This document shows positions 14,741 to 53,136 of a DNA stretch of 64,000 nt, one piece after another. A program made the translations under genes and the position numbers. The notes under the pieces were generated by a model that did no database searches, was not told the DNA's origin, and saw nothing but the letters and a program-made list of their open reading frames with translations. This stretch comes from Escherichia coli. Lineage in GTDB: Bacteria; Pseudomonadota; Gammaproteobacteria; Enterobacterales; Enterobacteriaceae. The first letter of the stretch is position 1, and each line of letters starts with the position of its first letter. The DNA is taken from assembly GCF_048403405.1 (NCBI RefSeq), contig NZ_CP183129.1. One strand, given 5' to 3'.

Positions 14741-14780
14741 GTCGGCCGGATAAGACGCGGCAAGCGTCGCATCCGGCAAT
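14741..14780. repeat. REP (repetitive extragenic palindrome) element
   Basis: GCCGGATAAGACGCGGCAAGCGTCGCATCCGGC palindrome between the convergent hda and yfgD ends. Confidence 0.6.
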
Positions 14781-49986: not shown

Positions 49987-51030
49987 ATGCGCTATCGCAT
50001 TTTCCTTCTCTTTTTTTTCGCTTTGTTGCCGACGTCTTTGGTGTGGGCGGCACCAGCGCAACGGGCGTTTTCCGACTGGCAGGTCACCTGTAATAACCAA
50101 AACTTCTGCGTGGCGCGTAATACGGGCGATCATAACGGACTGGTGATGACCCTGAGCCGCAGCGCCGGGGCGCATACCGATGCCGTTTTACGTATTGAGC
50201 GCGGCGGGTTGAAGTCGCCGGATGCGTCTGAAGGGGAGATAGCGCCACGGCTGCTGTTAGATGGTGAGCCGTTGGCGTTAAGTGGTGACAAGTGGCGGAT
50301 TTCACCATGGTTATTAGTAACCGATGATACGGCAACCATCACCGCGTTTTTGCAGCTGATTCAGGAAGGGAAGGCAATCACCTTACGCGATGGCAATCAG
50401 ACCATTTCTCTGAATGGCTTAAAAGCGGCGTTGTTGTTTATTGATGCTCAGCAAAAGCGCGTTGGCAGTGAAACCGCGTGGATAAAGAAAGGGGACGAAC
50501 CGCCGCTCAGCGTACCGCCCGCGCCTGCGCTGAAAGAGGTCGCGGTGGTTAACCCAACGCCGACGCCACTCTCACTCGAAGAACGCAACGATTTGCTGGA
50601 TTATGGAAACTGGCGGATGAATGGTCTGCGCTGCTCGCTTGATCCATTGCGTCGAGAGGTAAATGTCACTGCGCTGACCGATGATAAAGCGCTGATGATG
50701 ATTAGCTGTGAGGCAGGGGCCTATAACACCATTGATTTGGCCTGGATTGTGTCGCGTAAAAAGCCACTGGCCTCGCGCCCGGTTCGGTTACGTTTGCCGT
50801 TCAACAACGGTCAGGAGACGAATGAACTGGAACTGATGAACGCAACATTTGATGAGAAATCGCGTGAACTGGTGACCTTAGCGAAAGGGCGCGGATTAAG
50901 CGATTGTGGCATTCAGGCGCGCTGGCGCTTTGACGGTCAGCGTTTTCGCCTGGTGCGTTACGCCGCAGAACCCACCTGCGATAACTGGCATGGGCCAGAC
51001 GCCTGGCCCACGTTGTGGATCACCCGTTAA
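49987..51030 (+). CDS. ypfG: DUF1176-family periplasmic protein YpfG
   Basis: 347-aa track ORF with signal peptide (MRYRIFLLFFFALLPTSLVWA). Confidence 0.9.
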   Translation: MRYRIFLLFFFALLPTSLVWAAPAQRAFSDWQVTCNNQNFCVARNTGDHNGLVMTLSRSAGAHTDAVLRIERGGLKSPDASEGEIAPRLLLDGEPLALSGDKWRISPWLLVTDDTATITAFLQLIQEGKAITLRDGNQTISLNGLKAALLFIDAQQKRVGSETAWIKKGDEPPLSVPPAPALKEVAVVNPTPTPLSLEERNDLLDYGNWRMNGLRCSLDPLRREVNVTALTDDKALMMISCEAGAYNTIDLAWIVSRKKPLASRPVRLRLPFNNGQETNELELMNATFDEKSRELVTLAKGRGLSDCGIQARWRFDGQRFRLVRYAAEPTCDNWHGPDAWPTLWITR

Positions 51031-51070
51031 ACAAAATCCCAGATGCGCCCCTATAAAGCGCACGGACCGT

Positions 51071-51108
51071 CCCCTCGCCCCTCTGGGGAGAGGGTTAGGG
51101 TGAGGGGA
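51071..51108. repeat. GC-rich imperfect palindromic intergenic element (unclassified)
   Basis: CCCCTCGCCCCTCTGGGGAGAGGGTTAGGGTGAGGGG between the convergent ypfG and tktB 3' ends. Confidence 0.35.
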
Positions 51109-51132
51109 ACATACAGCATCCGGCGATCACCA

Positions 51133-53136
51133 TCAGGCACCTTTCACTCCCAGCACGTTATGCGCTTTTGCCACAATATTCTCGGCGGTAAAGCCAAAGA
51201 ACGGGAACAGCTTATCCGCCGGAGCAGATTCCCCATAGCCGGTCATCCCGACAATTGCCCCTTTCAGACCAACATATTTGTACCAGTAATCGGCGATGCC
51301 TGCTTCCACCGCCACGCGAGCCGCAACGTTAGAAGGCAACACCGACTCCCGATATTCCTCATCCTGGGCGTCGAAAATATCGGTCGAGGGCAGGGAAACT
51401 ACGCGTACATTGCGACCTTCTCCCGCTAATTTCTCTGCCGCTTGCAGGGTGATTTCCATCTCTGAACCGGTGGCAATCAAAATAATATCTGGCTTACCAC
51501 CGCTGTCTTTCAGTACATAACCGCCACGAGCAATCTCTTTAACCTGATCCGGCGTACGTTCCACCTGGGCCAGATTCTGCCTTGAGAGGATCAGTGCCGT
51601 CGGTCCGTTGTGGCGCTCAACGGCCAGCTTCCAGCCCACCGCTGCTTCCACCTGATCGCACGGTCGCCAGGTGCTGAAATTTGGCGTTAAGCGCAGACTG
51701 GCCAGTTGCTCAACAGCCTGGTGCGTAGGACCATCTTCGCCCAGACCAATTGAGTCGTGGGTATAAACCATAATCTGCCGCGCTTTCATTAGTGCCGCCA
51801 TCCGCGCGGCGTTACGGGCGTATTCAACAAACATCAGGAACGTCGCGGTATACGGCACAAAGCCGCCGTGGTGCGCAATGCCGTTGGCGATAGCGGTCAT
51901 GCCAAATTCACGCACCCCGTAGTGAATGTAGTTGCCCGCCGGATCTTCCTTCAGCGACACAGAACCTTTCCAGATGGTCAGGTTGCTGGGAGCCAGATCC
52001 GCCGAACCGCCGAGCAGCTCCGGTAGCAAGGGGCCATAAGCGTTAAGCGTATTTTGCGAAGCCTTACGGGTGGCGATTTTCGCCGGATTCGCCTGTAATT
52101 CATTGATATATTTCTGAGTCGTTTTCTCCCAGTCCTTCGGTAAACCACCGCTCATCCGACGGGTAAACTCTTCTGCCAGTTGCGGATGAGCCTTTTTATA
52201 GGCGGCAAACTTCTCATTCCAGCTCTGCTGCGCTTTTTCGCCTTTTTCGCGGGCATCCCAGGCGTGATAAATCTCTTTAGGGATCTCAAATGGCGGATGG
52301 TGCCAGCCCAGTTTTTGCCGTGCCAGCGCCACTTCTTCTTCCCCCAGTGGTGCGCCGTGCGCCTCTTCCTTACCTGCTTTATTCGGCGATCCAAAGCCAA
52401 TCACCGTACGGCAGATAATCAGCGACGGCTTATCTTTCACGCTTTGCGCTTCAAGGATCGCTTCCTTCACCGCCTGCGGATCGTGACCGTCGATCTCGTG
52501 GATCACATGCCAGTGATAGGCTTCAAAACGTTTTGCTGTATCGTCGGTAAACCAGCCTTCGGTTTCACCGTCGATGGAAATACCGTTGTGATCGTAAAAA
52601 CCAATCAGCTTGCCCAGTCCCAGCGTGCCCGCCAGCGAACAGACTTCGTGGGAAATACCTTCCATCAGGCAACCGTCGCCCATAAACACATAGGTGAAGT
52701 GATCGACAATTTCATGATCCGGCTGGTTAAACTGCGCCGCCAGTGTACGCTCTGCTATCGCCAGCCCGACGGCGTTCGCCAAACCTTGTCCAAGTGGACC
52801 GGTGGTGGTTTCAACACCTGGCGTATAACCAATCTCCGGGTGACCTGGGGTTTTTGAATGCAACTGACGGAAGTTCTTCAGTTCTTCCAGCGGCAGGTCG
52901 TAACCGGTCAGATGTAGCAAACTGTAGAGCAGCATCGACGCGTGGCCGTTGGAAAGAATAAAGCGGTCGCGATCATACCAGGTTGGGTCGGTGGGGTTAT
53001 GTTTAAGAAAATCGTTCCACAGCACTTCGGCAATATCAGCCATGCCCATCGGCGCGCCGGGATGACCAGAATTGGCTTTTTGTACCGCATCCATACTGAG
53101 TGCGCGAATCGCATTGGCAAGGTCTTTTCGGGACAT
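51133..53136 (-). CDS. tktB: transketolase 2
   Basis: Track ORF 51133..53199 trimmed to Met 22 ([27 protein letters not shown], 667 aa). Confidence 0.95.

Follow-up and report, generated by a model that had tools for sequence, protein, structure and literature searches.

Which kind of sequence is the GC-rich palindrome that separates the convergent genes ypfG and tktB in this stretch of Escherichia coli DNA, and does it act on the transcripts of its neighbours? A preliminary description of the 64-kb stretch analysed here (hereafter the window) had noticed an imperfect palindrome with CCCCTC- and GAGGGG-type arms, set it apart from the REP elements found elsewhere in the window, and offered two readings. 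The palindrome might belong to another intergenic repeat family, or it might be a factor-independent terminator structure lacking a U tract. We approached these questions by comparison with published repeat families, by searches in complete genomes, by structure prediction and by inspection of a published list of transcript 3' ends.

Results

The palindrome is a canonical BoxC element

The element lies in a spacer of 102 nt between ypfG (+) and tktB (-). Its parts and the neighbouring features are listed in Table 1. Gene names were taken from the RefSeq annotation of E. coli strain 4621, with which the sequence shows 100% identity over the 401 bases compared. The ORF ending at 51133 on the minus strand is annotated as transketolase (tkt, tktB locus), and talA is the next gene. 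By exact search, the 37-nt sequence CCCCTCGCCCCTCTGGGGAGAGGGTTAGGGTGAGGGG was found as a sole copy in the 64-kb window, on the plus strand at 51071-51107. The location given initially, 51071-51108, is thus correct except for its last position, the true end being 51107. The 37-nt sequence was absent from 100 dinucleotide-preserving shuffles of the window, even with three mismatches allowed. The imperfect palindrome consists of one C-rich arm which is followed by two G-rich arms. Transcripts of ypfG that cross the element meet the C arm first, while those of tktB read it as CCCCUCACCCUAACCCUCUCCCC...GGGGCGAGGGG. The element is entirely intergenic, being located between the stop codons of ypfG (51030) and tktB (51133), as BoxC copies always are.

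Table 1. Coordinates of the element, of its surroundings and of the MG1655 transcript 3' ends that coincide with BoxC elements.
Feature	Sequence	Position	Strand	Remarks
BoxC/TMECO type A-mm core, 36 nt, CCCTCGCCCCTCTGGGGAGAGGGTTAGGGTGAGGGG	window	51072-51107	+	match to the TMECO consensus
C-rich arm, CCCTCGCCC	window	51072-51080	+	one extra C on each side (51071, 51081)
'mm' position, G	window	51077	+	G.A against arm 1; G.U/G.T against arm 2
Loop 1, CTCTG	window	51081-51085	+	from the sequence, consensus parse
G-rich arm 1, GGGAGAGGG	window	51086-51094	+	from the sequence, consensus parse
Loop 2, TTA	window	51095-51097	+	marks type A (HPG1); type B (HPG2) has CCG
G-rich arm 2, GGGTGAGGG	window	51098-51106	+	plus G at 51107
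G-quadruplex motif GGG-AGA-GGG-TTA-GGG-TGA-GGG	window	51086-51106	+	identical to HPG1 (PMC5100583)
Left extended flank, AAAGCGCACGGACCGTC	window	51055-51071	+	loosely common to other type-A copies, consensus ~GCGCACGGACnGTC
Right extended flank, AACATACAGCATCCGGCGATCA	window	51108-51129	+	resembles GAACAGaCCAGCAyCGGTGCGAAC of other copies
Allele-specific segment, 76 nt	window	51038-51113		replaces REP unit(s) (7-strain alignment)
Accessory hairpin, TGCGC-CCCTATAAA-GCGCA	window	51044-51062	+	from folds of the 79-nt region, both strands
ypfG ORF	window	49987-51030	+	annotated ypfG (DUF1176)
ypfG stop codon	window	51028-51030	+	41 nt upstream of the core
tktB stop codon	window	51133-51135	-	25 nt upstream of the element on the minus strand
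3' end after BoxC 17, primary lldD end	MG1655	3781065	+	4 nt after the hairpin; C-rich arms first
3' end after degenerate copy	MG1655	4231270	-	3 nt after the hairpin; C-rich arms first
3' end after cstA-ybdD copy	MG1655	632098	+	10 nt after the copy; C-rich arms first
3' end after BoxC 7	MG1655	624567	-	11 nt after the copy; C-rich arms first
3' end at degenerate copy, all three conditions	MG1655	847200	-	4 nt after arm 1; other strand
3' end at BoxC 20	MG1655	3959467	-	4 nt after arm 1; other strand

The repeat to which the element belongs has been described under several names. It was first named BoxC in the 1990s, reportedly by Bachellier, Gilson and Hofnung. Later it was called PIT, for potential intrastrand triplex element (Hoyne and Maher 2000-2002, as given in PMC4666352), and TMECO (Holder et al. 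2015, PMC4666352). The TMECO consensus is CCCTCNCCC-N3-6-GGGNGAGGG-N3-GGGNGAGGG[G/T/C/-] (PMC4666352). Positions 51072-51106 of the window fit this consensus exactly and are followed by G, while 100 shuffles of the window did not contain a single match. The 36-nt core is letter-identical to four elements of MG1655, TMECO nos 9, 16, 19 and 22 (Table 1 of PMC4666352), and one identical MG1655 copy was checked directly in NC_000913.3. It is of the subtype 'A mm', which has TTA as second loop and a single G.A mismatch when CCCTCGCCC is set against GGGAGAGGG. The G-rich half, GGGAGAGGGTTAGGGTGAGGG (G3N3G3N3G3N3G3), is preceded by a complementary C-rich tract and is identical to HPG1, which Kaplan et al. 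2016 (PMC5100583) described as a 'G-quadruplex-hairpin-duplex switch'. By its sequence, the element is an ordinary, canonical copy of BoxC/PIT/TMECO/HPG1, a family already known and described four times. Every defining feature of BoxC/TMECO/HPG1 which can be checked at the sequence level is present.

The element itself reveals no difference to BoxC/TMECO: the consensus is the same, and it is intergenic, multi-copy and strain-variable, with similar extended flanks. Neither does it differ from HPG1, which is the same family described from the G-quadruplex (G4) angle. The location between convergent genes is shared with 6 of the 16 HPG1 members of K-12, and 15 of these 16 loci are downstream of the 3' end of at least one gene (table in PMC5100583). 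The K-12 set of BoxC elements differs in having no copy at ypfG-tktB, where REPs are found instead. In addition, five K-12 loci carry inverted A+B pairs, whereas the copy in the window is solitary and has no inverted type-B partner.

REP/BIME elements are similar to BoxC in being GC-rich imperfect palindromes with many copies, located in spacers at gene 3' ends. They also form stable hairpins without a U tract, of the kind shown to mark or protect 3' ends. However, their sequence is unrelated to that of the element, which has no GCCGGATG/GTAG core, and no alignment with it is seen for the true REPs at the site. A BoxC element consists of one C-rich and two G-rich arms, compared with two arms in REP, and BoxC has ~20 copies compared with ~500. 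Membership in REP/BIME was rejected, as the GCCGGATG...CATCCGGC-type palindrome with a GTAG-type foot is not found in the element. Six matches to the REP core GCCGGATGCGNCG were detected in the window with one mismatch allowed (0.83 expected). The preliminary description was therefore right both in separating the element from the REPs and in stating that REPs are present elsewhere in the window. The matches are at 14765, 39763, 50217, 59545, 61496 and 63821; the one at 50217 is inside the ypfG ORF, has one mismatch and may be due to chance.

We know of no RAYT-type transposase for BoxC. A REPtron-like arrangement, with an inverted BoxC pair flanking a RAYT-like gene, was considered for one distant locus and rejected, as only a C-terminal fragment is located between the copies. 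From its resemblance by eye, this fragment is presumably part of a methionine synthase (MetE).

Rfam did not reveal any family above threshold, either in an evalue-mode scan of the locus or in a gathering-mode scan of 12 other BoxC loci. The best match, Antizyme_FSE, has 22 bits compared with a gathering score of 40 and was taken as chance. No repeat feature is annotated in the nine MG1655 RefSeq stretches examined.

Distribution in E. coli and beyond

When 142 nt including the element were used as a blastn query against 5,426 complete E. coli genomes, 84,353 places were identified in 5,425 of them, with a median of 17 and a maximum of 30 per genome. Nearly all places are chromosomal (84,324), and 29 are on plasmids. 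Strain 4621 contains 18 places, so that the genome-wide motif search proposed at the outset revealed a repeat and not a unique sequence. With ~17 places per E. coli genome, the assumption of another intergenic repeat family was correct, and the family is BoxC.

Matches at other loci span 60-70 nt, which is longer than the core, and extend over 51051-51118 of the window. The flanks were compared in an alignment of 8 copies and in a listing of 16 loci, which are the window locus and 15 other type-A loci (gntP-fimH, fepB, hypA-hybG, alx, cca-bacA, fabI-ycjD, tauD-hemB, adk-hemH, zntA-tusA, pstB-pstA, yjdP-phnP, frlR-yhfS, aaeR-tldD, yihR-yihS and ytfQ-ytfR). Type-A copies share a looser left flank, ending in AAAAAGCGCACGGACnGTC, and the right flank given in Table 1. 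As these flanks are common to other type-A copies, the repeat unit in the window extends over ~51055-51129. Such a unit is consistent with the BoxC of the older literature, which is referred to by Petrillo et al. 2008 (PMC2267715) as a known E. coli family of 56 bp with 32 copies in the literature.

Of 72,556 plasmid records, 218 contain matches to the BoxC unit; most of these are megaplasmids of other genera (Sinorhizobium, Rhizobium, Azospirillum). The two best E. coli plasmid records with a match are ~4.9 Mb in size and thus as large as a chromosome. Among 50,697 phage records, only three contain a match. Two records of Campylobacter phages, MG065686.1 (A18a) and MG065691.1 (A11a), each 174 kb, have three BoxC-unit places each with 92.7% identity. 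BoxC is unexpected there, and contamination or chimeric assembly may be the reason.

When species-representative genomes were scanned with the consensus, in a search that is no taxonomic census, at least 120 loci were obtained, and among the matches listed none is yet from Enterobacteria. The matches listed comprise at least 142 copies; their hosts include Polaromonas, Contendobacter, a Candidatus Gracilibacteria MAG, a Bacteroidaceae MAG and an unclassified MAG. At least 15 copies of the exact core are present in the Candidatus Gracilibacteria MAG JALNXF01, at loci with an average of 28% GC, so that the motif occurs in a lineage of the candidate phyla radiation as well. Many core copies were also found in MAG JANYBJ01 and in a Polaromonas MAG among the matches listed. 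The flanks are lineage-specific, and in two genomes among the matches listed the core is part of larger repeat units, some of which are MITE-like. Holder et al. reported the motif in 262 proteobacterial genomes (PMC4666352).

The free positions of the arms are not random in the 142 copies listed. That of the C arm is T in 85 copies, G in 54 and C in three, but never A. Arm 1 has A at this position (GGGAGAGGG) in 139 copies, while arm 2 has T (GGGTGAGGG) in 133. This A/T asymmetry of the two G arms is maintained across phyla and is explained neither by a plain hairpin nor by chance. Selection for wobble pairing, by which G at the 'mm' position would be retained for its pairing with T/U in arm 2, was considered as an explanation and found insufficient: A would pair better, yet it occurs in 0 of the 142 copies.

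The ypfG-tktB spacer is occupied by different repeats

In the MG1655 table of TMECO elements there is no BoxC near 2.58 Mb (PMC4666352). In an alignment, seven strains share the left flank ...CGTTAAACAAAAT and the right flank CAGCATCCGGCGATCACC...; enclosed by these flanks is either the 76-nt segment with BoxC, or a pair of REP-like units (in K-12 and O157), or a single REP (in two further strains). Among the 5,426 complete E. coli genomes, 830 (15%) have the BoxC allele at this spacer and ~4,525 (83%) have the REP allele with one or two REPs. The right extended flank of the element is present in REP-allele strains too, from 51114 on. The accessory hairpin is inside the allele-specific segment, and its 3' half belongs to the left flank of BoxC.

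The junctions of the alleles in the seven-strain alignment did not reveal any transposase, target duplication or terminal inverted repeat. GCATCCGGC is a candidate microhomology at these junctions. In the REP alleles, CATCCGGCAATCA occurs twice in tandem, once at the REP end and once in the shared right flank (BW25113 locus 411-543 compared with window 51114-51131). The shared flank CAGCATCCGGCGATCA resembles the GCAyCGGTGCGAA spacer beside other BoxC copies. The CATCCGGCAATCA/CAGCATCCGGCGATCA repeats may represent microhomology involved in the replacement of one allele by another.

Spacers of related species were found through YpfG homologues. In a relative with a YpfG of 84% identity the spacer is only 18 nt long and contains no repeat, and in another one (85% identity) a REP follows directly after the stop codon. 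The spacer of Citrobacter farmeri contains four or five tandem REP units (retrieved locus 2245-2470). That of Salmonella enterica is ~420 nt long and contains a called gene of 76 codons (retrieved locus 2373-2603), for which no known family was found; no repeat was found in this spacer. As the relatives carry such varied occupants (REP, REP cluster, other insert, none), the ypfG-tktB spacer is best regarded as a general landing site for intergenic repeats, with BoxC as its lineage-specific occupant. In the supplements of Holder et al., the 63 TMECO loci are given without gene names.

Predicted folding

The 42-nt element was folded as RNA and compared with shuffled sequences. The minimum energy is -26.2 kcal/mol for the plus strand (ypfG-sense, z -2.96) and -21.1 kcal/mol for the minus strand (tktB-sense, z -2.31), far better than for shuffled sequences. 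Together with the sequence itself and its absence from the shuffled windows, these values bear out the description as a GC-rich imperfect palindrome between convergent ypfG and tktB, for which RNA folding had been proposed as a check. The corresponding DNA folds have values of -12.4 and -9.7. In the 'mm' subtype, the best partner of the C arm is the distal arm GGGUGAGGG, to which it is joined via a G.U pair. The alternative partner, the proximal arm, gives -16.7 and is ~9.5 kcal/mol costlier. Arm 2 is thus the preferred partner in the RNA minimum-energy fold, and in the triplex published from in vitro work it serves as third strand.

Taken by itself, the G4 formed by the G-rich part has -12.6 kcal/mol according to ViennaRNA, a gap of ~13 kcal/mol to the hairpin of the whole element. 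A G4 as dominant RNA fold was rejected, as ViennaRNA still returns the hairpin when G4 formation is allowed. With the G4 worth only -12.6 kcal/mol in this model, the hairpin is predicted to dominate whenever the C arm is present.

Transcript 3' ends at BoxC elements

The element lacks a U tract on both strands; it is followed by GGGGAACAUACAG on the plus and by GGGGACGGUCCGUG on the minus strand. A terminator scan of positions 50600-51600 detected no terminator-like site. In the promoter scan, the only promoter-like site lies inside tktB.

To look at transcript ends in the family, we searched one curated list, the MG1655 Term-seq data of Adams et al. 2021 (PMC7815308), as text for the BoxC sequence. 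The list has 1175, 882 and 1053 3' ends for three conditions. Listed strings are 61 nt long with the 3' end at position 51, which was verified with the coordinates of TMECO 17 and TMECO 7. The caption of Supplementary file 1 of PMC7815308 states 40 bp upstream and 10 bp downstream, while the strings actually run 50 nt upstream.

Six 3' ends coincide with BoxC elements (Table 1), compared with ~0.3-1.5 expected for ~26 elements by a rough hand reckoning, which is not a formal test. Only the lldD end is both scored and located after the hairpin. With a Rho score of 1.49, it falls within a region of significant Rho termination, and its intrinsic-terminator score of 1.32 is below the threshold of 3. 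For the K-12 type-A-mm copies that are read with the C arm first, as in ypfG transcripts, GGGTTAGGGTGAGGG had no match in the curated list of 3' ends. Transcripts of ilvC in K-12 extend through BoxC 20 as far as a genuine bidirectional terminator. A strong Term-seq end at 624680 (-), in the fepB-entC spacer, is 4 nt before the C arm of BoxC 8; this end does not depend on Rho, and its intrinsic score is low.

At the tktB locus of K-12, the only listed end in the tktB sense is 2581778+, which is located past the REPs and follows a hairpin within the 3' part of ypfG. Read-through transcripts of tktB thus seem to end inside the convergent ypfG gene in K-12. As the only listed end lies beyond the REPs, a repeat in the spacer need not define the end of tktB transcripts. 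The hairpin TGGGCCAG-ACGC-CTGGCCCA at 50991-51010 of the window matches the 2581778+ site (tktB-sense, ypfG-antisense).

It has been shown that transcripts which depend on Rho have precise ends immediately past stable stem-loops without a U tract (Dar and Sorek 2018, PMC6061677). Such stem-loops protect against PNPase and RNase II, and 24% of them are REPs (PMC6061677). BoxC is similar to these structures: it is a stable stem-loop without a U tract, and K-12 members have precise 3' ends a few nucleotides downstream, one of them in a Rho termination region. The most plausible interpretation of the Term-seq ends at BoxC is that they are stabilised by a protective hairpin, and not that they arise by intrinsic termination. 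They could also be inconsequential decay intermediates. The preliminary description named as the outcome that would count against it a motif which is unique and does not coincide with any transcript 3' end. What we found is a multi-copy motif, and the coincidence with Term-seq ends is seen for family members in MG1655. The idea of an element which marks transcript ends is not refuted by this check.

Discussion

The element is a solitary BoxC copy. In the account that we consider probable as a whole, it has no sequence-specific cellular role, its transcribed hairpin would mark or protect the 3' ends of the two convergent mRNAs, and non-B DNA structures may add to sequence turnover. Protection of 3' ends is proposed because the anatomy of BoxC fits and because K-12 copies show the 3'-end signature. 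Transcription of either convergent gene through the element would result in a very stable hairpin without a U tract. This hairpin alone would not terminate RNA polymerase, but it would halt 3'-to-5' exonucleases. Transcripts of ypfG or tktB which have read through or have been terminated by Rho would in this way gain stable 3' ends a few nucleotides past the hairpin. Such a role is established for REPs and for other stem-loops that lack a U tract, and the REP allele should be able to do the same 3'-end job at this spacer. In single-stranded DNA, triplex or G4 formation may contribute to local sequence turnover at BoxC loci. The more specific proposal for this locus, a hairpin which passively blocks exonucleases at the 3' ends of tktB and ypfG and is not itself the cause of polymerase termination, is put forward tentatively, as something that may well apply here and for which we would not claim an even chance.

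Other explanations have to be weighed against protection of 3' ends. A chance palindrome unique to this spot, as the single copy in the 64-kb window might suggest, is refuted by the 84,353 places in 5,425 genomes, by the identical copies published and by the empty shuffles. It is very unlikely that the element acts as a factor-independent terminator without U tract which stops the polymerase for ypfG, tktB or both. Like an intrinsic terminator, it forms a GC-rich hairpin of high stability, which directly follows the stop codons of the two convergent genes; there is no other terminator-like site in the spacer, and 3' ends of the family in K-12 are 3-11 nt past the hairpins. Kaplan et al. speculated on such a role for copies inside operons (PMC5100583). 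However, the element differs from an intrinsic terminator by the missing U tract on both strands, and the terminator scan was empty. The scored K-12 copy is below the threshold and in a Rho termination region, ilvC transcripts pass BoxC on the way to their true terminator, and the copies inside the pst and yih operons do not split them (PMC5100583). Reporter assays with PIT elements were negative, and no effect in vivo on promoter, terminator, RNA polymerase or conjugation is recorded for them in the summary given in PMC4666352. The terminator reading of the preliminary description is thus not supported.

We also think it unlikely that the element acts primarily at the DNA level, where a triplex or a G4/hairpin switch in single-stranded DNA would stall replication or recombination, cause instability or serve as a regulatory switch. 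Type A-mm oligonucleotides do form a stable intrastrand triplex, as shown by CD and NMR for the isolated G-rich strand with a Tm of 74 C, and TMECO loci are more variable than control loci among 56 E. coli strains (PMC4666352). G4/hairpin signatures dependent on K+ and Mg2+ have been reported from CD (PMC5100583). The ypfG-tktB spacer itself is polymorphic, and the T at the free base of arm 2 in 133 of 142 copies would be explained by a T.A-T triplet and not by a simple hairpin. On the other hand, the duplex is restored when the complementary strand is added, and DMS footprinting in vivo revealed no protection and no sign of a triplex (PMC4666352). PIT elements blocked DNA polymerase in vitro, though they were without effect in vivo according to the summary in PMC4666352. 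BoxC need not be the cause of variability, as the spacer varies in REP-bearing or empty lineages too, and the energy model favours the hairpin over the G4 by the gap given above. A selfish or neutral relic, that is, a small non-autonomous repeat without measurable effect on its neighbours, is a possibility to be taken seriously, though we doubt it. Some 30 years of work under four names have not led to a function; presence varies among strains without obvious consequence, and one relative manages with a spacer of 18 nt. Other genomes embed the core in larger lineage-specific repeats, including MITE-like ones. Yet the core hardly varies even between very distant bacteria and coincides with 3' ends in vivo, which suggests a passive molecular effect at least. 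Nor does the locus have the transposase, terminal inverted repeat or target duplication of a mobile element, and BoxC is almost absent from phage records, with plasmid matches mostly on megaplasmids of other genera or in chromosome-sized E. coli records.

A more far-reaching interpretation is that BoxC is an RNA 3'-end-setting module interchangeable with REP, and that its core is conserved via recognition by a candidate cellular or mobilising machinery and not by enterobacterial descent. It draws on the distant hosts of the core, which are Gracilibacteria (with flanks of 28% GC), Polaromonas, Contendobacter and rhizobial replicons, and we regard it as improbable. If true, ypfG-tktB would be a natural allele swap between interchangeable 3'-end modules, REP and BoxC.

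For annotation, the sequence should be labelled as a BoxC (PIT/TMECO/HPG1) repeat, as Rfam and the MG1655 RefSeq stretches examined do not flag copies. The literature on BoxC function did not reveal any decisive follow-up work.

To our knowledge, BoxC is one of the few repeat families of E. coli without a demonstrated function. Two points of the present analysis may be modestly new: the coincidence of BoxC elements with Term-seq 3' ends, and the series of REP, BoxC and empty alleles at a single spacer. The coincidences, together with these natural alleles, make the function of BoxC more testable.
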